DNA of 34,993 bases from Candidatus Nomurabacteria bacterium (GTDB taxonomy: Bacteria > Patescibacteriota > Minisyncoccia > Phycocordibacterales > UBA9973): NCBI GenBank assembly GCA_020850295.1, contig JADZEV010000010.1, positions 1 to 34,993 on the forward strand, in the 5' to 3' direction. Shown one piece after another: positions 7,793 through 34,119 of this stretch. The notes beneath the pieces are model-generated. The model did no database searches. It saw only the letters and a program-made list of their open reading frames with translations, and was not told the DNA's origin. Made by a program: the position numbers and the translations under genes. Each line of letters opens with the position of its first letter. Position 1 is the first letter of the stretch.

Positions 7793-8029
7793 ATGTTTGG
7801 ACTAAAAAAGATGTTAACAAATAAGCTTATGGAAAAGCAGCTCAAAAATCTGCCTCCAGCTCAACGCGACGCCATAATGAGTGCTGTTGAAAAAAACCCT
7901 GAGTTTTTCAAAATGCTTTCAAAAGAAATAGAAGATGCAAAAAAGAGTGGCAAAAGTGAAATGGCTGCTTCTATGGAGATAATGCGTAAGCATCAAGGCG
8001 AACTTCAAAAAATAATGATGGGGAAATAG
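7793..8029 (+). CDS. Hypothetical small helical protein (78 aa)
   Basis: ORF only. It lies 3 nt upstream of ychF. No recognisable family. Confidence 0.4.
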   Translation: MFGLKKMLTNKLMEKQLKNLPPAQRDAIMSAVEKNPEFFKMLSKEIEDAKKSGKSEMAASMEIMRKHQGELQKIMMGK

Positions 8030-8032
8030 TAT

Positions 8033-9034
8033 ATGGGACTAAGTATCGGAATCGTAGGACTGCCAAATGTCGGAAAATCGACGCTCTTTAATGCGCTTAC
8101 TAAGAAAGGGGTTCCAGCTGAAAACTATCCATTTTGTACTATCGATCCATCGGTAGGTATTGTGCCTGTGCCAGACGAAAGACTTGGTAAGCTTTCTGAA
8201 TTTTCGCGTTCTGAGAAAACTATTCCTGCGGCTATAGAGTTTGTAGACATTGCTGGACTTGTTGCTGGTGCTAGTAAAGGTGAAGGTTTAGGAAATAAGT
8301 TCTTAGCAAATATTCGTGAGACTGACGCCATACTTCATATGGTTCGAACTTTCGAGGATAAAGATGTTATTCATGTCGCTAACAAAGTAGATCCTATTTT
8401 TGATATCGGGGTTATAAACTTAGAGCTTATAATGGCTGATCTTGAAACAGTAAACAAAAGACTTGAGACAAATAGTAAAGATCAAAAACGAGGTGTTAAG
8501 GAAGCAGTTATCCTGCACACAGCGCTCGAAAAAATAAAAACTGCTCTTGAAGATGAGGTTATGGCTAGTACCGTAATCCTTGAGGACAATGAAAAGCCAT
8601 TGGTTGCTCAACTTAACTTACTAACAATTAAGCCTATGCTTTATGCGCTTAATACTTCGGCGGCTAATGAAAATAAGTTAAAAGAAGTTATTTCTATGTT
8701 ACCAGGGCCATATGTAGAGCTTGATCCAGTTTTTGAAACAGGTTTTGATGAAATGATAAGAGCGTGTTACAAGCTTTTAAGTCTCGAAACCTTTTTTACA
8801 ACAGGAGAATCAGAAACTCGTGCTTGGACTATCAAAATAGGAAGTACTGCTCCTATTGCCGGCACTGCAATACATACAGACTTTAAAGACAAGTTTATTC
8901 GTGCGCAAGTCATCTTTTGGCAAGATTTATTAAACTCAGGAAGCTACGCAGAGGCTAGAAACAAAGGCCTTGTCAGGACAGAAGGGAAGGAATACATAGT
9001 AAAAGATGGTGATGTCGTAGAGTTCTTAATATAA
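8033..9034 (+). CDS. ychF: Ribosome-binding ATPase YchF (Obg-like GTPase family)
   Basis: G1 motif GIVGLPNVGKSTLFNALT, FCTIDP, DIAGLVAGAS, and a C-terminal TGS-like end KEYIVKDGDVVEF. Confidence 0.9.
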   Translation: MGLSIGIVGLPNVGKSTLFNALTKKGVPAENYPFCTIDPSVGIVPVPDERLGKLSEFSRSEKTIPAAIEFVDIAGLVAGASKGEGLGNKFLANIRETDAILHMVRTFEDKDVIHVANKVDPIFDIGVINLELIMADLETVNKRLETNSKDQKRGVKEAVILHTALEKIKTALEDEVMASTVILEDNEKPLVAQLNLLTIKPMLYALNTSAANENKLKEVISMLPGPYVELDPVFETGFDEMIRACYKLLSLETFFTTGESETRAWTIKIGSTAPIAGTAIHTDFKDKFIRAQVIFWQDLLNSGSYAEARNKGLVRTEGKEYIVKDGDVVEFLI

Positions 9035-9061
9035 AAATCTATAGATTTTTATATTAAGAAC
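9022..9061. repeat. Perfect 40-bp palindrome spanning the ychF stop codon
   Basis: GTTCTTAATATAAAAATCTA|TAGATTTTTATATTAAGAAC. The two 20-nt arms are exact reverse complements. Confidence 0.9.
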
Positions 9062-9148
9062 TTGGAGATCCTGAGACGAACCATTCCAGTGAACCGTAGG
9101 GTAGCAGAATTCTTGATTTAGTTGACATTTATAGCTAATATTGTGCTA

Positions 9149-9177
9149 TTGACTTTATCATCAAAAGGTGCTATAAT
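9149..9177 (+). promoter_or_regulatory. Sigma-70-type promoter (TTGACT-17-TATAAT with an extended TG)
   Basis: TTGACT at 9149-9154, a 17-nt spacer ending in TGc, TATAAT at 9172-9177. It is 24 nt upstream of the 9202 ORF. Confidence 0.6.
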
Positions 9178-9201
9178 TTATTTAAACAAAATCAAAATAT
9201 T

Positions 9202-9432
9202 ATGAAAAAGCTCATAGTTTTTCTCGTGGTTATTGGTTTAATTTTCTTTGGATATTTCAAAACAGACGGATTTACATATTTAAATGGTGATCTTAGTCGT
9301 AATTTCACCGGTTTATTAATGGTTGTCGCTATAGTTACATCTATAATCGCTTTTTGTTATTTGGTTAGTGGTTTAAAATTTTTTAAAAAAGCGATTAATG
9401 ATATGCCAATTACTCCGTTTGAAAAAGAGTAA
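9202..9432 (+). CDS. Small two-TM membrane protein (76 aa), hypothetical
   Basis: Two hydrophobic helices. It has its own strong promoter and is followed by a terminator. Confidence 0.5.
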   Translation: MKKLIVFLVVIGLIFFGYFKTDGFTYLNGDLSRNFTGLLMVVAIVTSIIAFCYLVSGLKFFKKAINDMPITPFEKE

Positions 9433-9433
9433 C

Positions 9434-9467
9434 AAAAAAAGCCTGAGTGTTATACTCGGGCTTTTTC
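9434..9467. terminator. Bidirectional intrinsic terminator
   Basis: 9-bp stem AGCCTGAGT/ACTCGGGCT flanked by an A-run and a T-run, between convergent genes. Confidence 0.75.
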
Positions 9468-9919
9468 TATTTTTTTAACTGCTCTATTTCTTTTTGAAGT
9501 TGGGTTAGTATGGTTTGGATAGCTGTGATAGCTTGAGCTTCTTTTTGCTCTATTCGGTGATCCTCCTCGCTGTCTTCTTCTATGTCTTCAATATCTTCTT
9601 GGATTTCGTCCACATCTTTTTCAATCTCCTCAATATCTTCTTGGATCTCCTCCATGTCTTCCTGGATATCCTCAATATCTTCGGTATTCTTGTTTACTGA
9701 CATTTGAATAAAGATAGCTAAATATATTGCCTCCAAAGAAACTAGTGTTGTAAGCCCAAGTAACATTCTGTCAAAAGAAATAACACCAATGCTAGGCAAA
9801 ACAAAAGCCAATACAAACAGTATCGTATGAAAAATAAGTGAGGAAGTAGAGCCTATCCATCTAGTAGCCTTGTCAGCCCCTTTCTCAAGTTTTGCTTTTG
9901 TTCTATCGACTTTCATCAT
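9467..9919 (-). CDS. DUF1003-like membrane protein with a tandem acidic (E/D-I) repeat tail
   Basis: Two TM helices and SLEAIYLAIFIQMSVNKN, which resembles DUF1003. The C-terminal part is EDIEDIQEDMEEIQEDIEEIEKDVDEIQEDIEDIEEDSEE. ATG at 9919 or 9916 preferred over the GTG at 9937. Confidence 0.55.
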   Translation of the reverse strand: MMKVDRTKAKLEKGADKATRWIGSTSSLIFHTILFVLAFVLPSIGVISFDRMLLGLTTLVSLEAIYLAIFIQMSVNKNTEDIEDIQEDMEEIQEDIEEIEKDVDEIQEDIEDIEEDSEEDHRIEQKEAQAITAIQTILTQLQKEIEQLKK

Positions 9920-9958
9920 GATAAACAGTTGTAACACAAATTATAATATTTAGGCAAG

Positions 9959-9989
9959 AAAAAAGCCCCGAGTTTTTAATTCGGGACTT
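9959..9989 (-). terminator. Intrinsic terminator downstream of the 10003-10494 ORF
   Basis: On the minus strand, GTCCCGA..TCGGGGC followed by TTTTTT. Confidence 0.6.
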
Positions 9990-10002
9990 AACATTTTTGC
10001 TT

Positions 10003-10494
10003 TTAAGCAGTTTTCTTTTGGTACTTTTTTTGAAATTTATCAATTTGTGACCCTGGAGTAGGGCTTTCTATCTTTCTCTTGATTTCATCAAATTGATTTC
10101 CAAACTGTGTTTCTAGCCTTACTCCAGTAGCAACGTTGTTGTTATTGGAGTCAGAGCTATTTTTCCTGATCATTTCTTCGGTTGTAGGAATGTTCAGCTT
10201 TCTTCTCTGTTTGTAATTTAATCCAAGGTATGGATCAATCAACAACTTCTCTGCTATCTGTACAGCTTTTTCTGTTTGATAAACAAACAGTGATTTTTCT
10301 TCCAGTTTCCACTGTTGGCGCATTCTCCAGTACTCACGGTGATCAAGAATAATTCCTTTTTTGATCGTAAGCTTCCATGGAACATGGTTGAATTGTTTAT
10401 CAACAAAAAAACAGATATCACTTCCGTCAGAAAACATAATTTTTACGCAGTAACCATTATTGGTCACTAGCATAGAAGCAGATTTGATTTGCAT
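10003..10494 (-). CDS. Hypothetical protein (163 aa)
   Basis: ORF with a downstream terminator. No family recognised. Confidence 0.45.
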   Translation of the reverse strand: MQIKSASMLVTNNGYCVKIMFSDGSDICFFVDKQFNHVPWKLTIKKGIILDHREYWRMRQQWKLEEKSLFVYQTEKAVQIAEKLLIDPYLGLNYKQRRKLNIPTTEEMIRKNSSDSNNNNVATGVRLETQFGNQFDEIKRKIESPTPGSQIDKFQKKYQKKTA

Positions 10495-10616
10495 AATAAA
10501 GAACAGGTTTATGTAAGTTAAAAATTTATTTCTATAGTATTATACACTTTTTAATTAAAAAGTCAAGATAAAGGTATTTGCTCAAAATAGGGTTTTCTGA
10601 TATAGTTTTGCGACAT

Positions 10617-10775
10617 ATGCCACAACCAAATCTAGTAAAATTAGTAAATAAAGACACAGGAGAGACTTACTGGTCTACAAAAAACAAGAAAAAGCTTGCA
10701 GGTATTAAGCTTGAGCTTAAAAAGTATTCTAAAAAACTTCGAAAAGTTGTAACTTTTAAAGAATCAAAAAAGTAG
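10617..10775 (+). CDS. rpmG: 50S ribosomal protein L33 (Cys-less form)
   Basis: 52 aa. YWSTKNKKK...LELKKYSKKLRKVVTFKESK matches the L33 pattern (T.KNK...lelkKycp..rkh..hkE.K). Promoter TTGCTC-17-TATAGT (10578-10606) lies 10 nt before the ATG. Confidence 0.75.
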   Translation: MPQPNLVKLVNKDTGETYWSTKNKKKLAGIKLELKKYSKKLRKVVTFKESKK

Positions 10776-10793
10776 CCCAAGGGCTACTTTTTT
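10772..10793 (+). terminator. Intrinsic terminator after rpmG
   Basis: GTAGCC-caag-GGCTAC followed by TTTTTT. Confidence 0.7.
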
Positions 10794-10820
10794 GCTATAG
10801 TTTGCTGGTTAATTAAAAAA

Positions 10821-10891
10821 GGGCGATTAGTTTAGTGGTAGAACAGCGGTCTCCAAAACCGCTAGTGTGGGTTCGATTCCTACATCGCCCG
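10821..10891 (+). tRNA. tRNA-Trp (anticodon CCA)
   Basis: Hand-folded cloverleaf: acceptor GGGCGAT/ATCGCCC, anticodon arm GCGGT-CTCCAAA-ACCGC, T arm GTGGG-TTCGATT-CCTAC, discriminator G. CCA is not encoded. Confidence 0.9.
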
Positions 10892-10905
10892 CAAAATTGT
10901 TCATT

Positions 10906-11199
10906 ATGCCAACAAGTAAAATAGATAAAATGACAACCTATGTTCCTAATATTTTAGGAACAGTATTGATGAATCTTGTTCAAAAGAAGAACAAGAATAA
11001 AATAAAAAACTGGATTACCATCGCTTTATTTTTAAAAGGTAAACCTGACTCTAAATCTTCAAAATTAGTAAGATCGTTTATAGTTAGTTATCGTAAGGAT
11101 ATACCTATTCCTATTTTAAGAATTTTTGAAGAATCATTATTACCTGATGTACAAGAAGAACATCTTGTAATAGGACAGCTTTTTAAAAGACCTGTTTAG
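10906..11199 (+). CDS. Hypothetical protein (97 aa)
   Basis: ORF trimmed to the first ATG after tRNA-Trp. Basic and low complexity. Followed by a terminator. Confidence 0.3.
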   Translation: MPTSKIDKMTTYVPNILGTVLMNLVQKKNKNKIKNWITIALFLKGKPDSKSSKLVRSFIVSYRKDIPIPILRIFEESLLPDVQEEHLVIGQLFKRPV

Positions 11200-11208
11200 G
11201 GGTCTTTT
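11185..11208. terminator. Bidirectional terminator hairpin
   Basis: AAAAGACC-tgtttagg-GGTCTTTT between convergent ORFs. Confidence 0.6.
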
Positions 11209-12028
11209 ATTTTGCATATTTTTTGAACCAAGTTCTTTGGCGTTTTGCATATTGCCAGATAGATTTTTCAAGCTCAGATAACATTTCTTGTCTGGTTAAT
11301 TTTTCTTGTAAGTATAAAGCCAAATATCTGTACTCAAGCCCTAGGTCCTCAAGTCTTTTCCAAGACATTTTATTAGAGTGCAAATTTTCAACTTCTTTAA
11401 CCATACCTTTTCTCATTCTTTTAAAAAGTCTGTCGTGAATTCTTTGTTTCAAAACATCATCTGGAAAATCTAAATATATCCATTCTACATCGTATTTTTT
11501 TGTGCGCTTTATCTTTGGGACAGAGCCTAATTCTGTAGCTATTTCTATAGCTCTGATAATCCTGACTCTGTTTTTTATATCAACTGTTTCAAATCTTTCA
11601 GGATCTAGTTTTTGTAATTTTTTTGATAATTCTTCCACAGAAAATTTTTCTAATTGTTTTCTTAGTGTTTTGCTTGGTTTCACTTTTGGAAAATCTTGAT
11701 CGTATATAACTGCATCAATATAAAATCCTGTTCCACCACAAATTATAGGAGTTTTACCTTTTTTAAAAATATCTTTTATGACTTTTTCAGCAAGACGTTT
11801 GTACTGAGTTACAGAAAAAACTGTTTTAGGATTTGCGACATCTAGTAGGTGGTGAGGAACACCCTTCATTTCTTTTTTTGTAATCTTCCCACTACCTACA
11901 TCTAATCCTTTATAAACTTGTCTTGAATCAGCAGAAATAATTTCACCATTTATTTTTTTGGCTAACTCTACAGCATAGTCACTTTTACCTGTAGCTGTAG
12001 GTCCACAAACTACAATTATTTTTTCCAT
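11207..12028 (-). CDS. miaA: tRNA dimethylallyltransferase
   Basis: P-loop VVCGPTATGKS, then ISADSRQVYKGLDVGSGK and VPHHLLD, typical of MiaA. Confidence 0.9.
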   Translation of the reverse strand: MEKIIVVCGPTATGKSDYAVELAKKINGEIISADSRQVYKGLDVGSGKITKKEMKGVPHHLLDVANPKTVFSVTQYKRLAEKVIKDIFKKGKTPIICGGTGFYIDAVIYDQDFPKVKPSKTLRKQLEKFSVEELSKKLQKLDPERFETVDIKNRVRIIRAIEIATELGSVPKIKRTKKYDVEWIYLDFPDDVLKQRIHDRLFKRMRKGMVKEVENLHSNKMSWKRLEDLGLEYRYLALYLQEKLTRQEMLSELEKSIWQYAKRQRTWFKKYAK

Positions 12029-12031
12029 GTT

Positions 12032-12229
12032 GTGTCTCTATTGTACCAAGTTAGAACCTATTTTCAAAATAAATAAAGCGGACGAATTTTTGCGAAACAG
12101 TTTTCTGGGGAAAAGGATTCGCAAAAATTCGACTAGTGATTTTCTGAAATTCAGTCTCGCCCGCGCGGAGGAGGGGTCTGGGGAGGAATCCGCGCGGGCT
12201 TTGGCATTTCTTTTTTGGCGGGGCGGGTA
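12032..12229. repeat. IR-A left copy (198 bp), inverted repeat partner of 14270-14467
   Basis: By hand alignment, 197/198 identical to the reverse complement of 14270-14467 (single G/C difference near 12137). Contains the miaA promoter, a 13+5-bp AT hairpin (12084-12130), the palindrome CTGAAATTCAG, and an 11-bp GC hairpin GCCCGCGCGGA/TCCGCGCGGGC (12169-12209) followed by a T-rich tract. Confidence 0.95.
12040..12067 (-). promoter_or_regulatory. miaA promoter inside IR-A (TTGAAA-16-TACAAT, extended TG)
   Basis: Minus strand reads TTGAAAataggttctaacttggTACAATagagacacaacATG. The -10 ends 11 nt before the ATG, so the mRNA is near-leaderless. Confidence 0.6.
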
Positions 12230-12231
12230 AC

Positions 12232-12260
12232 TTGAAAAAATGCCCACAAAATGATAAAAT
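12232..12260 (+). promoter_or_regulatory. Cassette promoter (TTGAAA-17-TAAAAT, extended TG)
   Basis: TTGAAA at 12232-12237, TGa then TAAAAT at 12255-12260, 9 nt before the ATG at 12270. Confidence 0.55.
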
Positions 12261-12269
12261 GAAATTGTT

Positions 12270-13082
12270 ATGAAAATCGCACTTGCAAACCTATGTAAAA
12301 CAGAAGACTTTGCAAAACTCTCATCGCTAGATGAGTCAATTTCATTTTTGAATGAGAACAAAATCGAGTACCTCGATTTTGCCTCTGGTACAGAAAAGAT
12401 TGATGGCATGGTTGAAAAATTTAATCAATCAATACTTTCTGATGCAAAAATTGTTTGGGTAATTCGCGGAGGTAATAAATGTATTCAAACACTTGATAAA
12501 TTAGACTGGGATAATATTGTAAAATTAGGCAAACGATTTTATGGATTAAGTGATTTTACTCATTTTTCAACCATGGCAGTCTCAAAAGGAATTACCTGTT
12601 TTTATGGACAAGGACTTACTCGCATTAAACAATTTTTTCCCGCTGAAAATGATAGAAAATTTATTGCTGATTTTTTAAAAACAGGAATCCCTGTTTCAGA
12701 AAATGCAAAAGCTCTCGCTTTTGCAAATAGTGATTTAGATATTTCCAAGGAAAAAATAATTGGTGGACATCTCCTGATTTTTACACTCATGCAAAGTCTT
12801 TTAAATATAGATTTGAAAAATCGCCATTTGTTTATTGAATACCATACAGGAGCGATTGGTGAAGATTTAGATGATTTTGGATATTACCTCGACCAACTTT
12901 TGTATGTTGTAAAAAATAATATGCCAAAGGGATTTATTTTTGGTAGAACAGAAATGAAGAATTTTGATAATTCTCAAATACCGATTGATGAAATAAATAA
13001 ATACTCTGTTGAAAAGTTATCAAAATATAATCTACCAATTTATTATATTGACCATTTTAAAAACACAATTACTTTTTCATAA
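12270..13082 (+). CDS. S66 peptidase family, LD-carboxypeptidase / MccF-like
   Basis: VWVIRGGNKCIQTLDKLDW and the nucleophile motif GLSDFTH, typical of LdcA/MccF. Confidence 0.65.
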   Translation: MKIALANLCKTEDFAKLSSLDESISFLNENKIEYLDFASGTEKIDGMVEKFNQSILSDAKIVWVIRGGNKCIQTLDKLDWDNIVKLGKRFYGLSDFTHFSTMAVSKGITCFYGQGLTRIKQFFPAENDRKFIADFLKTGIPVSENAKALAFANSDLDISKEKIIGGHLLIFTLMQSLLNIDLKNRHLFIEYHTGAIGEDLDDFGYYLDQLLYVVKNNMPKGFIFGRTEMKNFDNSQIPIDEINKYSVEKLSKYNLPIYYIDHFKNTITFS

Positions 13083-13084
13083 TT

Positions 13085-13588
13085 ATGGCAATCTACGATG
13101 CAAAGACAAAGGACAACAAATGTATTTTTTGCGAAATAGTTTCTGGTAATATTCCAGTGGCAGGAAAATTTTGGGAAAATGATGAATTTATGGCTTTTCT
13201 TTCGATTGACCCAAACACAGAGGGTTTTACTTGTGTCATACCAAAGCAACATTATGGAAGCGATGTTTTGAAAATGCCTGACGATGTATTGCAGAGATTT
13301 ATCATCGCTTCAAAAGAAGTTGCTTTGGTATTAGAAAAATACTTTTCTGATGTTGGGCGTGTTGGTGTAATGATGGAAGGAACAGAAATCGATCATGCCC
13401 ATATTAAACTCGCTCCGCTTCATGGCACAGAAAATCTAAAGAAAGGAATTTGGGAACAATTCTTAAGTGGAAAAGAATTTTGGTTTGATAAATATGAGGG
13501 TTGGATTTGTTCTGGTGGAGGACCAAAAGCAAAAGAGGAAGATTTGAAAAAACTCGCCGAAGAGCTATTTAAAATACAAAAAGTTTAA
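13085..13588 (+). CDS. HIT (histidine triad) family nucleotide hydrolase
   Basis: N-terminal CIFCEIVSG and the histidine triad DHAHIKL. Confidence 0.8.
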   Translation: MAIYDAKTKDNKCIFCEIVSGNIPVAGKFWENDEFMAFLSIDPNTEGFTCVIPKQHYGSDVLKMPDDVLQRFIIASKEVALVLEKYFSDVGRVGVMMEGTEIDHAHIKLAPLHGTENLKKGIWEQFLSGKEFWFDKYEGWICSGGGPKAKEEDLKKLAEELFKIQKV

Positions 13589-13590
13589 CT

Positions 13591-14169
13591 ATGAAAACTA
13601 TTTTACTTTTTCCCGGCGCATTTAATCCTCCACACTATGGACACGCAGAAACTATTAAAATAGCTCTTGAAAAGTCATCTTTTGATGAACTATGGGTTGT
13701 ACCGTCTGGAAAGCGAGATGATAAAAATATTACAACAAACTATGAAGATCGTCGTGCCTTGGGTGAATTTTTTGTAGAATATTTAGAATCAGAAGTCGAT
13801 ATTCCAGTGAAATTGATTACAGCGGAACTGGATAATATAGACGGAAAATTTACTCGCGAAATATTAAAGGAAATAAAATTACAACCAGATGTAGAAATAA
13901 CACAATTGATTGGATTGGATGGTTTTTTACATCTTCAACGCAAATTAACTGATACCGAAGAAAAATTTATTGTTATGAATAGACAAGGATATGAATTTCC
14001 TAAAAATTTTTCTCATAATGATAATGTAGTAATTTTTGAGGGAACCAAAAAATCTATATCCTCAACTCAAATTCGGAATATGGTTAAAAACCATGATGAT
14101 AGTTATAAAAAACTTGTTCCCGAAAAAATCGCTTCATATATAGAAAGTAAAAAGTTGTATCTTTTTTAG
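13591..14169 (+). CDS. nadD: Nicotinate/nicotinamide-nucleotide adenylyltransferase-like (NadD family)
   Basis: GAFNPPHYGHAE ((H/T)xGH nucleotidyltransferase motif) and the C-terminal ISSTQIR motif. Confidence 0.75.
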   Translation: MKTILLFPGAFNPPHYGHAETIKIALEKSSFDELWVVPSGKRDDKNITTNYEDRRALGEFFVEYLESEVDIPVKLITAELDNIDGKFTREILKEIKLQPDVEITQLIGLDGFLHLQRKLTDTEEKFIVMNRQGYEFPKNFSHNDNVVIFEGTKKSISSTQIRNMVKNHDDSYKKLVPEKIASYIESKKLYLF

Positions 14170-14224
14170 GGAGCAAAAATTGTGCGCGAATGGGTGGGTG
14201 GGTCAAGCACAAACTAATTTTTAT

Positions 14225-14250
14225 ATTTCGGCGTTGCCGAAATTTCATTG
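14225..14250 (+). terminator. Terminator of the 3-gene cassette
   Basis: ATTTCGGC-gtt-GCCGAAAT followed by a T-rich sequence. Confidence 0.6.
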
Positions 14251-14269
14251 TTATATATTTTTTTCTTAA

Positions 14270-14467
14270 TACCCGCCCCGCCAAAAAAGAAATGCCAAAG
14301 CCCGCGCGGATTCCTCCCCAGACCCCTCCTCCGCGCGGGCGAGACTGAATTTCAGAAAATCAGTAGTCGAATTTTTGCGAATCCTTTTCCCCAGAAAACT
14401 GTTTCGCAAAAATTCGTCCGCTTTATTTATTTTGAAAATAGGTTCTAACTTGGTACAATAGAGACAC
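14270..14467. repeat. IR-A right copy (198 bp)
   Basis: Reverse complement of 12032-12229 (197/198). Its promoter copy points rightward into IR-B. Confidence 0.95.
14432..14459 (+). promoter_or_regulatory. Duplicate of the miaA promoter, firing into the IR-B structured sequence
   Basis: TTGAAA at 14432-14437, 16-nt spacer, TGg then TACAAT at 14454-14459. The predicted start near 14466 coincides with the first base of the IR-B homology. Confidence 0.55.
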
Positions 14468-14611
14468 CAGAACAGAACTAAGAGGCTCTGAACGAGCCAA
14501 TGCGTGGGCGTGCCGAAGGCACGCCCACTCTGTTTGCCCTGATTTTGCGGGGGAATTCAGAAATGCGGGCGCGCTTGCGCGCACTGTTTTTCCGCCAAGG
14601 AGGAGGTTCGA
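14465..14611. repeat. IR-B left copy (147 bp), inverted repeat partner of 16186-16332
   Basis: By hand alignment, 141/147 identical to the reverse complement of 16186-16332. Begins with CACCA, identical to the last 5 nt of tRNA-Leu. Confidence 0.9.
14466..14591 (+). ncRNA. Candidate structured RNA (B RNA, promoter-driven copy), ~126 nt
   Basis: A promoter lies directly upstream. Predicted helices: GAACAGA/TCTGTTT enclosing GGCTC-tgaac-GAGCC and the 11-bp GTGGGCGTGCC-gaa-GGCACGCCCAC, then CTGATTT/AATTCAG, then GCGCG-cttg-CGCGC plus TTTTT (terminator-like). GC-rich in an AT-rich genome. Confidence 0.45.
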
Positions 14612-14677
14612 AATCAGAAGCGAGGAATTTGCTTTGTCCGAAAATACAAAAAGAATTTTTGTTGTCGAAATATTTTT

Positions 14678-14785
14678 TGGTATACTGGTTATGCTCACAA
14701 TATTATTAATTAGTCAGTAGAAATGGTTATGCTAGAACAATTGTGACTAATGTTGTGATTGTGAGCCTAGCATAACCATTTCTAC
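14678..14785 (+). promoter_or_regulatory. LSR 5' region: extended -10 plus nested, mutually exclusive inverted repeats
   Basis: TGgTATACT at 14678-14686. Perfect 19-bp arms GTAGAAATGGTTATGCTAG (14717-14735) and CTAGCATAACCATTTCTAC (14767-14785). GGTTATGCTCACAAT (14687-14701) can pair instead with ATTGTGAGC..AGCATAACC (14758-14777). ATTGTGA occurs 3 times. The ATG lies 11 nt after the last arm and has no SD. Confidence 0.5.
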
Positions 14786-14796
14786 TTTATGTACAT

Positions 14797-16437
14797 ATGC
14801 AAAATCAAAAATTCTTTTTGTATGCTCGCAAGTCTACGGATGTCGAGGATAAACAAGTATTGTCTATCGAAGCACAGTTGGACGAATTGCGAGACTATGC
14901 CAAGCGAGAAGCAATAGAAATTTCCGCCGAATATGTGGAAAAACAATCTGCGAAAATTCCAGGTCGTCCGATATTTAACAAGATGTTAGATGATATTGAA
15001 AAACTCGGTGGAAGTATTCTCGCATGGCATCCTGACCGACTTGCCCGCAATTCAGTGGACGGCGGTCGAGTGATTTACCTCCTCGACACAGGGAAACTTG
15101 CGAGCCTGAAGTTTCCAACCTTTTGGTGTGATTCCACGTCACAAGGTAAGTTCATGCTCAACATGGCTTTCGGACAAAGCAAATACTATGTAGATTCTCT
15201 TTCCGAGAACACGAAGCGTGGACTTCGCCAAAAAGTCCGTAATGGAGATTACCCAAGCCAAGCGCCTGTTGGGTATATCAACGACTCTCGGACTAAAAGT
15301 ATTGTGGTGGACAAGAAAAAATCTCGTGTCATTCGCTTGGCTTTTGAACGATATGTCAAAGGTGGTCAAAGACTGGAAGACATCGCAAACTTTTTGGCGA
15401 AGAACGGAATATCCACGCGTTCCGGAAAGAGAATGTCCAAATCTCGTGCGACTTTCATTTTGTCCAATCCGTTTTACATTGGTTTATTCAAATACGGTGG
15501 TGAACGTCACGAAGGAAAGTACGAGCCAATCATTTCAAAGAAACTTTTTGATGAAGCACAGGAAATGTTGAAATTTCGTGGTCAACCTGAACGAAAACCA
15601 CAAAATCAACCTCAACCTTTTTGTGGACTCATTTCCTGTGCTTCCTGCGGAATGATGATAACTGGCGAACATAAATTCAAACGGCAGAAAAATGGTAATG
15701 TTCACGAATATACTTACTATCGTTGTACGAAAAAAAGAAAAGATTTTGTTTGTAAAGAATCTGCCGTTAGAGAAGAAGAATTGGATCGCCAGTTATCATC
15801 TCTCATTCAAAAAGTTTCTTTGCCCAAAGACTGGGCGGAGGAACTCAATCGTCTTGCTTTGCAAGACTACGGAAAATCCGCCAAGTCTTTGGCTGTTTGC
15901 GTGAAAGAAAAGCAAGACGCCATTTCTGCTATCAATATTCGATTGGAGCGACTTCTCAATGGATATTTGGAACAAGATATTGAACAGGAAATATATCGTG
16001 CTGAAAAATCAAAGTTATTACTTCGAAAGAAGTCGCTCGATGAAGAAATGTCATCTCTTTCACGCAAACAAAATACTTGGCTCGAACCTTTCCAAAATTG
16101 GCTAAAAGTCGCACAGAGCTTGGACAAAACCGCTTCTGATTCAGACCTTTTTGCTAAAAAGGTCTGTGCCAAAGAAATCTTTGGCTCGAACCTCCTCCTC
16201 GGCGAAAAATTAGTGCGCGCCAGCGCGCCCGCATTTCTGAATTCCCCCGCAAAATCAGGGCAAACAGAATGGGCGTGCCTTCGGCACGCCCACGCATTGG
16301 CTCGTTCAGAGCCTCTTAGTTCTGTTCTGGTGCCCGAGGAGAGACTTGAACTCTCACCCCTTACGAGACTCGATTTTGAGTCGAGCGCGTCTACCATTCC
16401 GCCACTCGGGCTAACACGCTTATTTTACATGGTTTAA
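14797..16437 (+). CDS. Large serine recombinase (resolvase domain + recombinase domain + zinc ribbon + coiled coil), with a 3' extension through IR-B and antisense tRNA-Leu
   Basis: N-terminal FLYARKSTD (catalytic Ser) and HPDRLARN. Recombinase domain SNPFYIGLFKYGG. Zinc ribbon CASCG...YYRCTKK. The paralog at 32630-33430 ends about 6 codons after the shared motif G(S/N)N.LL..EK, whereas this ORF continues ~75 more codons. About aa 464-546 in total are encoded by IR-B and the complement of tRNA-Leu. Confidence 0.85.
   Translation: MQNQKFFLYARKSTDVEDKQVLSIEAQLDELRDYAKREAIEISAEYVEKQSAKIPGRPIFNKMLDDIEKLGGSILAWHPDRLARNSVDGGRVIYLLDTGKLASLKFPTFWCDSTSQGKFMLNMAFGQSKYYVDSLSENTKRGLRQKVRNGDYPSQAPVGYINDSRTKSIVVDKKKSRVIRLAFERYVKGGQRLEDIANFLAKNGISTRSGKRMSKSRATFILSNPFYIGLFKYGGERHEGKYEPIISKKLFDEAQEMLKFRGQPERKPQNQPQPFCGLISCASCGMMITGEHKFKRQKNGNVHEYTYYRCTKKRKDFVCKESAVREEELDRQLSSLIQKVSLPKDWAEELNRLALQDYGKSAKSLAVCVKEKQDAISAINIRLERLLNGYLEQDIEQEIYRAEKSKLLLRKKSLDEEMSSLSRKQNTWLEPFQNWLKVAQSLDKTASDSDLFAKKVCAKEIFGSNLLLGEKLVRASAPAFLNSPAKSGQTEWACLRHAHALARSEPLSSVLVPEERLELSPLTRLDFESSASTIPPLGLTRLFYMV
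16186..16332. repeat. IR-B right copy (147 bp)
   Basis: Reverse complement of 14465-14611 with 6 mismatches. Its outer 5 nt are the ACCA end (plus the preceding C) of tRNA-Leu. Confidence 0.9.
16205..16327 (-). ncRNA. Candidate structured RNA (B RNA, tRNA-Leu trailer copy), ~123 nt
   Basis: Starts immediately after the encoded CCA of tRNA-Leu and ends at GCGCG-ctgg-CGCGC plus TTTTT. Same predicted helices as the 14466-14591 copy. Confidence 0.45.
16328..16411 (-). tRNA. tRNA-Leu (anticodon CAA), CCA encoded
   Basis: Hand fold: acceptor GCCCGAG/CTCGGGC, anticodon arm CTCGA-CTCAAAA-TCGAG, long variable arm, T arm GAGAG-TTCAAGT-CTCTC, discriminator A, CCA. Confidence 0.9.
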
Positions 16438-32605: not shown

Positions 32606-32631
32606 AAAAACCACTCAGTCGAGTGGTTTTT
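32606..32631. terminator. Bidirectional terminator
   Basis: AAAAA-CCACTC-agtc-GAGTGG-TTTTT between convergent genes. Confidence 0.75.
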
Positions 32632-33430
32632 ATTTTGTTAATAGAATCTTCTTTTCAGATAACAAAATATTACCTTTCAAACATCCAAGTAATTCTCTTT
32701 TTTCTACATCAGCTCCTTCTTGTAGGAGGTATTTTGCGTAATTTCGTATATCTAAATCTGCCACTTCCACTTTGGTTTTGATGCCTAACATTGATTGCTG
32801 GAACTTCTTAAATCGCTCGACTTCTGACTTTATCTTTTCTTTAACCCCAATTTCGTCTATATCGATTTCGCTTATTAAATCCTCAAACTGTTTCAGGAGG
32901 TCTATTTCATTGATATATCCACATTTACAGTTCGGATCCCGTCGTTTGGTGCAACCATAATAGACATGACGGTGTACATTGCCGTTCTTTTGCTTTTTAA
33001 ACTTCTCATCGGCCGTAATACCTGAGCCACATAAACCACAGGTCATGAGTTTGGTAAAAGCGAATTCTTTGCCTTCGGATCTCACAAACTGGCTTTTTAC
33101 TTGCTCCTGCACCTGATCAAACAATTCTTTGGTAATTAATGGTTCGTGTGCACCTTTATACCAAAGCCCACTCTTTCTAGGATATTCAAATGATCCGTAA
33201 TAGAAATCATTTTGTAGAAGAAGATAAATATTACTCAAAGTCAGTCCTTTGTTACCATTTGGTGTTTTGAAGTTCATTTCAAATTTTAGCCAGTGATATA
33301 TTTTCTTACCACTCCATTTCTCATAAGCAACCTTCTCAAACATCTTCTTGATGATATGACCACGATCAGGGTCTATGTAGACATGACCTACTTCATAGAC
33401 ACAGAAGGAAATACTTTTGGTCTTCACCAA
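32630..33430 (-). pseudogene. 5'-truncated large serine recombinase (recombinase domain + zinc ribbon + coiled coil, no catalytic resolvase domain)
   Basis: Paralog of the 14797 LSR (FKKQKNGNVHRHVYYGCTKRR against FKRQKNGNVHEYTYYRCTKKR). The frame opens only with a TTG, the first ~160 aa including the catalytic Ser are absent, and the upstream DNA is AT-rich non-coding. Confidence 0.7.
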
Positions 33431-33615: not shown

Positions 33616-34119
33616 ATGAATAAAAAATTAATTTTCTTAACAATTTTTAGTTTTCTAGTGTTTGGTCTTTTTGGCCTTACTAATTTAAAAGTTGCTGAAG
33701 CTCAAACAGCAAGTTTTCCTGCGGGTTGTAGTTCTGCTTTAGGCTATAGCGTAACAACAGGATCTCCTTGTAATGGCACTTCTGTAGCTACTCCTATGTT
33801 TATGCCAGGTTGTGATTCTGCTTTAGGCTACAGCACTGTAAACGGTGCTCCGTGTAGTGGCGGACCTGTTGCTATATCATGGCTTGCTGGCTGTACATCA
33901 ATACTAGGTTATAGCGATATAACAGGTCTTCCTTGTAATGGAACATTTGTAGCTACAACTTCAACACCAGGCAACACCCCAACAACTCCAGGTCTTCCAA
34001 CAACAGGCTTTGGTGGTAATGCATTAATTAACGCAATGATACTTATATTTTCTGCTTCAATTGCTTCTTTAGGTTTCGTTTATATAAAGAGACAAAATTC
34101 TAGTGAGCAGGCAAAATAA
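33616..34119 (+). CDS. Secreted LPXTG-anchored protein with three Cys-pair repeats
   Basis: Signal peptide. Three copies of (A/P)GC.S.LGYS....G.PC.G..VA. Pro/Thr linker. LPTTG, then a hydrophobic helix and a KRQ tail (sortase sorting signal). Confidence 0.7.
   Translation: MNKKLIFLTIFSFLVFGLFGLTNLKVAEAQTASFPAGCSSALGYSVTTGSPCNGTSVATPMFMPGCDSALGYSTVNGAPCSGGPVAISWLAGCTSILGYSDITGLPCNGTFVATTSTPGNTPTTPGLPTTGFGGNALINAMILIFSASIASLGFVYIKRQNSSEQAK

Follow-up and report, generated by a model that had tools for sequence, protein, structure and literature searches.

A probable serine recombinase-moved element with two inverted-repeat-enclosed modules at a tRNA-Leu gene of a Candidatus Nomurabacteria genome

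The DNA analyzed here, a 34,993-nucleotide stretch of contig JADZEV010000010.1 from the Candidatus Nomurabacteria bacterium assembly GCA_020850295.1 (hereafter the window), very likely harbours a 4.3-kb mobile element at positions 12032-16332, which is moved by a large serine recombinase (LSR) and lies between the 3' end of a tRNA-Leu(CAA) gene and miaA. The position of the element is exact, with position 74 of the tRNA on one side and the miaA start codon on the other, and its parts follow the order a, cargo, a'^b, LSR, b', in which a and a' are the arms of one long inverted repeat (IR-A), b and b' are those of a second (IR-B), and a'^b is the internal junction of two arms. The IR-A arms span 12032-12240 and 14259-14467 (209 nt, 98% complementary; by BLAST, 12032-12229 and 14270-14467, 198 nt, 99.5%), and the IR-B arms span 14465-14611 and 16186-16332 (147 nt, 96%), while no further inverted repeats of 40 nt or more were found in the 35-kb window. 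The G+C content of the LSR segment is 40-50% as against ~30-35% around it, and b is GC-rich in an AT-rich genome. The target gene, tRNA-Leu(CAA), is located on the minus strand at 16328-16411 with its CCA included (ARAGORN; Rfam tRNA, 61 bits), and its terminal bases, the CA of the CCA, are supplied by arm b' of the element. On the other side, the host gene miaA (11207-12028, minus strand; Pfam IPPT, E 2e-65), which is outside the element, has its ATG at 12028 and is now situated 3 nt from the left end. Both repeats, the tRNA and the miaA ATG had been described in an earlier note on this DNA, made from the sequence alone, and all were recovered as claimed by repeat search, ARAGORN, Rfam and Pfam.

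That the intervening DNA was inserted is indicated by the relatives of the host locus. Five loci retrieved through MiaA (L085, L086, L087, L095 and L105) possess an uninterrupted tRNA-miaA site, with tRNA-Leu(CAA) 1-9 nt upstream of the miaA start and on the same strand; the closest two exhibit 81% and 77% MiaA protein identity, and the other three are more distant. Since these relatives have tRNA and miaA uninterrupted, the 4.3 kb between them in the window represents an insertion. The empty junction of L086 reads ...gagagttcaagtctctcccgtggcac AAT ATGGAAAAAATAATTGT, and the window flanks, when joined, read ...gagagttcaagtctctcctcgggCAC/AAC ATGGAAAAAATAATTGT (the slash marks the junction). The empty site that had been predicted from the window, ...CTCGGGCAC/AACATGG, was found in the same form among the relatives (e.g., ...ctcccgtggcac AAT ATGGAAAAAATAATTGT in L086); an exact match to the predicted 26-mer was absent from the metagenome contigs searched, and an exact-sequence look-up with the window MiaA and ParB returned no match. 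In the ancestral arrangement miaA had no room for a promoter of its own, so that co-transcription with the tRNA was necessary. Both copies of IR-A carry the outward promoter previously ascribed to them, TTGAAA-16-TACAAT with an extended -10 TG, on the minus strand at 12067-12040, where it faces miaA, and on the plus strand at 14432-14459, where it faces IR-B. As the -10 hexamer of arm a is five bases from the core, the predicted transcription start lies 4-5 nt before the miaA AUG, and miaA would now be served by this promoter as a nearly leaderless gene.

The same architecture recurs well beyond the window. LSR homologs number at least 7989 in the protein collection, the best 120 exhibiting 62-94% identity, and the survey described below comprises 80 loci kept of 244, with one genome per species (GTDB species representatives); the counts of layouts, junctions and orientations refer to those loci whose contig is long enough for the question concerned. 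Most of the 80 loci are labelled as metagenome-assembled genomes of Patescibacteria type (Paceibacterota, Nomurabacteria, Moraniibacteriota, Taylorbacteria and others), while a few carry other bin labels. In four contexts of three homologs (L001-L004), arms b of 146 nt surround the LSR gene, the right arm directly adjoins the 3' terminus of an opposite-strand tRNA gene (Leu-GAG, Lys-CTT or Val-TAC), and an IR-A'-like sequence is located to the left of b; two of these loci (L002 and L004) possess a second, inverted copy of a 3.1-3.3 kb further left, which encloses unrelated genes and in which sequence homologous to IR-A occupies the equivalent place. The layout is also present in 13 further loci, and the full double-repeat arrangement was found in 16 loci, from at least 16 independent assemblies, with differing cargo of 1.4-6.8 kb. 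The co-occurrence of such arms with LSR homologs in related genomes, proposed in the earlier note as something to look for, is thereby borne out.

That a wide range of tRNA genes receive insertions of this family at their 3' ends is equally plain. The 3' end of an opposite-strand tRNA gene follows LSR residue 463 by 122-176 nt (mostly 143) in 64 of 69 informative loci, the targets comprise 22 isoacceptor genes of 11 amino-acid families, and LSR modules that are 92-94% identical were encountered at different tRNA genes. The window element is best described as an integrated, probably still functional member of a very common cargo-carrying family in Patescibacteria. No relative of the LSR was found among 2.9 million viral contigs, which makes a phage origin unlikely.

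The junctions bear the marks of serine recombination. When followed in the direction of the tRNA, each of the 16 complete loci shows three junctions, i.e., J1, in which a' ends in CAC and is followed by the flank; J2, in which a' ends in CAC and is followed by b; and J3, in which the tRNA ends in CAC and is followed by b. The core triplet corresponds to C72-N73-C74 of the tRNA, being CAC, or CTC at tRNA-Thr (discriminator T), in J1, J2 and J3 alike, and the J2 triplet is identical to that of the tRNA in 31 of 31 loci. In other loci, the sequence beyond J1 is an ordinary tRNA trailer that includes a terminator hairpin. On the plus strand of the window GTG stands at both outer ends as a direct repeat, namely at the attL crossover (12032-12034, from junction comparison) and at the attR crossover (16330-16332, equivalent to C72-A73-C74 of tRNA-Leu on the opposite strand), and CAC stands at the internal junction (14465-14467, plus strand), where, as had been remarked before, it is common to IR-A' and IR-B. 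Element and tRNA have 3 nt in common, extended to 5 nt where b by chance starts with CA. Because identity is confined to a core of 2-3 nt and the target is not duplicated, the whole unit from a to b' bears the signature of integration by a serine recombinase. The three shared nucleotides and the unduplicated target are consistent with a 2-nt staggered cut. The match of the core with the triplet of the tRNA, at tRNA-Thr too, suggests to us that the discriminator base falls within the crossover dinucleotide. Furthermore, reverse-complementing J2 gives exactly the joined ends b'^a, and the internal junction is therefore a second, inverted attP.

The foregoing agrees in its essentials with one of three readings put forward in the earlier note, namely an integrative LSR element that restores the signals of its neighbouring genes by its ends and holds a copy of those ends, joined and inverted, in its interior. 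Empty sites in relatives, recurrence of the layout with other cargo, and a core that is direct on the outside and inverted on the inside uphold this reading. The rebuilding of CCA that was part of this reading is not general, since b starts with CACCTT or CACTAG in many family members, and no CCA is rebuilt there.

A conserved GTTC is found in a' 19 nt before the core, within the promoter spacer, at positions free of promoter sequence demand; the T-loop GTTC of the tRNA lies 15 nt before the core. In the LI integrase system, the recognition motif is located ~5 bp further out in attP than in attB, and the offset of the GTTC resembles this shift, an analogy that serves as no more than a lead. 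The possibility that a' is a degenerate tRNA, suggested by its T-loop-like GTTC, was discarded, as T-stem pairing is absent and the spacing does not fit; a' is better read as a promoter in which a recognition motif is embedded.

Long, nearly perfect repeats in metagenomic data naturally raise the suspicion of a chimeric assembly, which the earlier note had named as a ground for refutation. Assemblers do break here: in 51 of the 80 loci the contig stops in the a'/b repeats, within 900 nt of the LSR gene on its upstream side, and many LSR homologs reside on contigs of 1.7-2.1 kb. Nevertheless, an artefact has next to no probability, given that the arms are imperfect (98% and 96%), that no fewer than 16 assemblies, produced in different studies and with different assemblers, show the layout, and that the junctions are nucleotide-precise. 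The element family is, in turn, a systematic cause of fragmentation in Patescibacteria assemblies.

The short contigs, which carry b-LSR-b' only, bear also on whether the unit is in reality two adjacent foldback elements, each moving by itself, i.e., an autonomous insertion sequence-like b-LSR-b' and a non-autonomous a-cargo-a'. In three loci (L013, L054 and L032), b-LSR-b' is indeed found between two tRNA genes without a or a'. Assembly breaks at the repeats account for the short contigs, however, and the core direct repeat frames the whole unit and neither module alone. Of the 37 listed loci in which the sequence left of b can be seen, 35 have a' there, overlapping b by the same 3 nt, and a strict motif search detects a' in 31 of the 48 loci whose upstream sequence is long enough. 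In addition, the solo modules possess the most diverged arms (83-88%), as expected for dead-end products. Two self-moving elements are consequently very unlikely. A related candidate, b-LSR-b' alone as the element with a palindromic attP made of two b ends, was likewise rejected, as its only direct dinucleotide repeat is off-centre and a' is conserved to the left of b.

The single composite element being preferred, its internal attP deserves attention, and four loci show that this site recombines in nature. Locus L025 represents an alternative isomer, in which tRNA-Leu on the plus strand is followed by b-LSR-b'^a-cargo-a' and then the flank, with correct cores at all three junctions. In L013 (9680-9775), L054 (9587-9663) and L032 (about 1-40), b-LSR-b' is enclosed by two convergent tRNA genes, being joined precisely at the 3' end of each. 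Units of this kind are the product expected of recombination between J2 and a second tRNA gene, and they imply a chromosomal inversion or deletion. Truncated relics (L035 and L080) were also encountered.

An invertible switch, in which either the LSR segment would flip within its b/b' arms or the cargo within its a/a' arms, so as to toggle expression as the main purpose of the repeats, had been offered as a second reading. Both segments are enclosed by long inverted repeats, the LSR segment of L025 is reversed relative to the tRNA, so that it would be separated from its promoter and placed opposite an antisense one, and L034 is possibly a second reversed case. Against this, 64 of 65 scorable loci exhibit the common orientation, L025 alone the other, and insertion with proven empty sites accounts for the layout fully. 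The required pair, a'^b with b'^tRNA, would moreover be attP-type with attR-type, and we know of no characterized LSR that recombines such sites. Nor is the enzyme a small invertase of the Hin/Gin/Pin type with a C-terminal helix-turn-helix, being an LSR of 546 residues with recombinase and zinc-ribbon domains. A switch is accordingly a side reaction at most, and as the principal function it is distinctly unlikely.

The degree of arm identity is informative as to the life of the element. Arms are 99-100% identical in many intact elements, while those of L013 (87.6%) and L054 (83%) are the most diverged seen. High identity in intact elements and low identity in immobile modules point to homogenization tied to the mobile cycle, and from these comparisons arm identity seems to be renewed in that cycle and to decay in stranded copies. 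By this measure the window copy (98% and 96%) would be intact, although not freshly arrived. Conceivably, the cycle might involve a single-stranded stage, e.g., during natural transformation, at which pairing of a with a' and of b with b' would rebuild a double-stranded attP and promoter on a dumbbell. Such a stage would suit the near-perfect arms of intact elements in a family that differs by up to ~30%, as well as the 83-88% of the split modules, and the two stems would stack into exactly the a'^b duplex. Direct evidence for it is nil; serine recombinases cut both strands, so that integration of a dumbbell would leave hairpin-capped chromosome ends, and gene conversion between the attP repeats of a double-stranded circle accounts for the identity just as well. 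A single-stranded stage is hence very improbable indeed. As a separate observation, the left b (9343-9720) and right b' (11381-11527) of locus L014 are of different subtypes, with no inverted repeat detected, which suggests exchange between two elements.

For the double-stranded integrative element, the following cycle is proposed. The excised form would be a circle in which the cargo and LSR segments are parted by two inverted copies of a ~350-bp repeat (b' plus a), each with a central attP and a promoter firing across it. Integration via the copy downstream of the LSR gene would yield the common isomer, in which that attP copy is split: its a half would become an outward promoter for the orphaned gene formerly co-transcribed with the tRNA (here miaA), and its b' half would become the tRNA trailer with two terminators. 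The intact internal copy would stay as promoter and attenuating leader of the LSR gene and, since it is predicted to be the recombinase's own binding site, would probably act as an operator too. It would at the same time be a live attP, able to give the alternative isomer or to recombine with a second tRNA gene. Integration via the other copy would generate the rare form of L025, in which the LSR gene is cut off from its promoter and opposed by an antisense one. The best guess for the bias between isomers is selection for elements that keep an expressed recombinase. Given that the LSR gene is the only one conserved among the elements, excision probably proceeds without a separate directionality factor; TnpX and the Ccr enzymes have been reported to excise on their own.

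A number of points weigh against this proposal. Neither a circle nor an excision junction nor a mixture of orientations was seen directly in the contigs, which cannot reveal the circle, as its junction would equal the internal a'^b junction. Two equivalent attPs should make both isomers common, yet the alternative form is seen once in 65 loci, which requires selection or an unexplained asymmetry. No directionality factor was found, and self-sufficient excision is assumed by analogy. A live internal attP seems costly, its benefit being hypothetical. The putative operator and attenuator roles are based on position and consensus matches only. Finally, the arms of the window element have diverged to 98% and 96%, and this particular copy may no longer move.

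The recombinase is encoded by an open reading frame of 546 residues (14797-16437, plus strand), of which core residues 1-463 correspond to 14797-16185 and the tail is contributed by b'. Its sequence assigns it to the large serine recombinases: the resolvase-type catalytic domain (PF00239, E 1e-21) covers residues 7-151, with YARKSTD near the N-terminus, and is followed by a Recombinase domain (PF07508, residues 174-259) and a zinc ribbon (Zn_ribbon_recom, PF13408, residues 274-334), while structures of the A118 integrase C-terminal domain match residues 169-331. The best NCBIfam match is CcrB, at 130.8 bits against a cut-off of 900, followed by CcrC (73 against 900) and CcrA (71 against 700). 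In 65 of 65 loci the LSR frame passes through b' and the core, with no stop within the element; in the window, the stop codon is located in the antisense of the tRNA gene. The tail exhibits conserved blocks (SNLLLGEK.VRAS, W.ALR..H and KP.SS.LV), and its length variants are all multiples of three (+12, +24, +33, -9 and -21). The same DNA segment therefore doubles as coding sequence and leader, in addition to being an attP arm and the tRNA trailer with its terminator. Ahead of the stop, at 16299-16313, stands a terminator-like hairpin in the LSR sense, and some transcripts might consequently lack a stop codon.

Because the frame crosses the core of an element without a stop, the protein made from the integrated form ends in residues encoded by the antisense of the tRNA gene. 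In the circular form or the alternative isomer, the LSR would instead end in residues encoded by arm a (...VSLLYQVRTYFQNK). That the recombinase thereby rewrites its own C-terminus at each reaction, as a built-in sensor of its state of integration, is an unlikely though attractive notion; if the tails were to differ in stability or in site pairing, the direction of the reaction, i.e., integration or excision, could be set without a separate directionality factor. Apart from this gene, the window contains at 32630-33430 (minus strand) an N-terminally truncated LSR of 266 residues with recombinase and zinc-ribbon domains only and without the catalytic domain; flanking inverted repeats are absent, and it is probably a relic of another element.

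Arm a (12032-12240) includes, besides its outward promoter, a palindrome with a 14-bp stem (12083-12131), a GC-rich hairpin and GGCGGGGCGGG at its inner end. Its counterpart a' (14259-14467, plus strand) fires into b (14465-14611, plus strand), which would constitute the leader of the recombinase transcript and contains three hairpins, two of them followed by T-runs. The expectation that IR-B ends in a terminator-like hairpin was exceeded, in that two such hairpins (14504-14528 and 14569-14582, plus strand) are present and are mirrored in IR-B', both copies having them in the sense of the tRNA and of the a' promoter. Arm b' (16186-16332) accordingly reads as tRNA-Leu end, trailer and two terminators on the minus strand and as LSR tail coding sequence on the plus strand, and RNA of the b sense corresponds to the tRNA trailer at the right end and, internally, to the predicted leader of the transcript from a'.

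The central hairpin of b comprises 9 base pairs, with 96.6% of cells paired; five pairs are changed on both sides in 14-17 of 43 sequences and none is broken, and its covariation score is 0.466, as against 0.155 in shuffles. RNAalifold, when run on the whole b alignment, returned this central hairpin only, because MAFFT had aligned the other hairpins poorly, and two b hairpins were for that reason scored with a hand-written structure. Wobble pairs favour the b-sense strand (26 G-U vs 9 A-C). A UUCG tetraloop was considered as a strand marker for hairpin 2 and dropped, the loop being a symmetric triloop and thus uninformative as to strand.

These features lend themselves to the third reading of the earlier note, a recombinase that uses the structured RNA. 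In such a scheme, an RNA of ~125-146 nt from b, made from the a' promoter and as the tRNA trailer, would guide the enzyme or be needed by it, in the manner of IS110 bridge RNAs. The GC-richness of b, its conserved hairpins with compensatory changes, the wobble bias and the two routes to a nearly identical RNA are all in keeping with such a role. The protein, however, has the complete LSR apparatus for DNA recognition; the T-runs after two of the three hairpins mark them as terminators; the hairpin loops, of 3-5 nt, are too small for guide segments; and coding constraint acts on this DNA, which also encodes the LSR tail. Furthermore, an Rfam scan of the window at gathering thresholds returned three tRNAs only, with no RNA family over a or b. 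Dependence on RNA, left without support by these data, is extremely improbable, and for b a regulatory function, either as a leader or as an attenuator, is plausible.

The proximal recombinase leader (14612-14796, plus strand), which separates b from the LSR gene, contains a weak promoter-like site, the conserved box CAAAAAGAATTTTTG and a perfect 20-bp hairpin (14716-14735 with 14767-14786), both sides of which change in homologs. A 23-nt stretch of this leader (14639-14661) is 91% complementary to the first LSR codons (14806-14828). The hairpin and the codon-pairing stretch may exert translational control, and together with the box and the promoter-like site their arrangement suggests tight control of recombinase synthesis.

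Several known systems share individual traits with the element. The clostridial elements Tn4451/Tn4453 (TnpX) and Tn5397 (TndX) possess one LSR gene at the end of a small cargo element, form a circle intermediate, employ a 2-nt crossover without target duplication and without a separate directionality factor, and have promoter signals linked to their joined ends. The present element resembles them in its single LSR gene, its small size with cargo and the promoter signals at the joined ends; yet elements of the Tn4451/Tn5397 type use a GA dinucleotide and varied targets, whereas a CAC or CTC core and tRNA 3' ends are used here, and they have neither the long inverted arms nor the internal copy of the joint. 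SCCmec cassettes (CcrAB, CcrC) are similar in their variable cargo, in LSR insertion at the 3' end of a conserved housekeeping gene and in a recombinase that integrates and excises, CcrB being the best NCBIfam match of the enzyme, although far below cut-off (131 vs 900 bits); their target is rlmH rather than tRNA genes, and they lack boxed modules and an internal attP. The serine integrases of A118/LI, Bxb1, phiC31 and TP901-1 have the same three-domain architecture and the same attP x attB logic with identity limited to a short core, but they require a phage-encoded directionality factor and have one attP and usually one specific attB.

Outside the serine recombinases, islands and prophages with tyrosine integrases insert at the same target and also replace the terminal tRNA bases and trailer, but by another enzyme family and with tens of bases shared with the target, as against 3 nt here; the LSR is the only recombinase of the present element. 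The yeast 2-micron plasmid (FLP/FRT) likewise combines two unique segments with two long inverted repeats that contain the recombinase site, as the putative circle would; it is, however, a replicating plasmid with a tyrosine recombinase that uses inversion for copy-number amplification, whereas the element is without a replication gene and its sites serve integration. In the mycobacteriophages BPs and Brujita, an element gene contains the attachment core within its 3' end, and integration alters the C-terminus of the protein. The LSR frame that crosses the core in all 65 loci is comparable, except that BPs and Brujita have tyrosine integrases and the affected gene is the repressor, while here it is the recombinase itself. 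Systems of the IS110/IS1111 bridge-RNA type combine a DEDD/RuvC-like transposase with a guide RNA bearing target and donor loops, as opposed to the serine recombinase and 3-5-nt loops found here. The element thus differs from known LSR transposons, cassette chromosomes and tRNA islands in its internal inverted attP, its two boxed modules and its multi-purpose arms. In line with the claim that such an LSR layout is undescribed, no description of it was found in the literature, within a search of limited coverage in which absence is not proof.

With thousands of copies, the family looks like a main mobile element of the Patescibacteria, a phylum whose gene exchange is poorly understood, and it moves ordinary metabolic, cell-wall and translation genes between lineages. 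The contig breaks caused by its arms affect estimates of completeness and gene content of Patescibacteria genomes, while the live internal attP provides a concrete route to inversions and deletions between tRNA genes. The element further represents a compact serine recombinase system aimed at a nearly universal sequence, the tRNA acceptor end, with a specificity that is set in part by one base, the discriminator, and apparently without need of a directionality factor; recombinases of this sort are relevant to genome engineering.

In the window, the cargo module (12232-14243, plus strand) consists of three genes with a promoter-like site (12232-12260) and a terminator-like hairpin (14225-14243) of their own, as had been claimed for it. 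Domain searches identified an LD-carboxypeptidase-like gene (12270-13082), a HIT gene (13085-13588) and a NadD-like nucleotidyltransferase gene (13591-14169), all on the plus strand. Cargo enzymes elsewhere in the family include PEP/pyruvate dikinase-type, aminotransferase, class I and class II aminoacyl-tRNA synthetase, NUDIX, glycosyltransferase and methyltransferase proteins; pilin, NYN nuclease, reverse transcriptases with Lcl_C domains, DDE transposase, ABC transporter and VanY-type peptidase genes are also carried. For example, the cargo of L083 (2781-9610) encodes two reverse transcriptases and Lcl_C-domain proteins and looks like a diversity-generating retroelement; that of L041 (4327-9513) has a DDE transposase nested in it and a split Trp/Tyr-tRNA synthetase; and that of L025 (11966-17614) contains two class II aminoacyl-tRNA synthetase genes.

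Composite arrangements were also noted. Locus L032 contains, 6 kb from the first, a second element (7992-11793) with inverted arms of 250 nt, 2.5 kb of cargo and then a more divergent LSR gene, which indicates that the double-repeat layout reaches a more distant clade. Locus L059 (1140-3780) is nested or tandem, with an extra pair of 48-nt a-type arms around a non-coding, GC-rich segment of 232 nt by a'^b and with another copy of a 2.3 kb to the left. Two coding repeats of the window are unrelated to the element, i.e., a tandem repeat at 9573-9698 with a 21-nt period and six overlapping 42-nt copies, and a repeat at 33720-33956 with three 72-nt copies at 81-84-nt spacing, which belongs to a Cys-/Gly-rich protein of secreted appearance.

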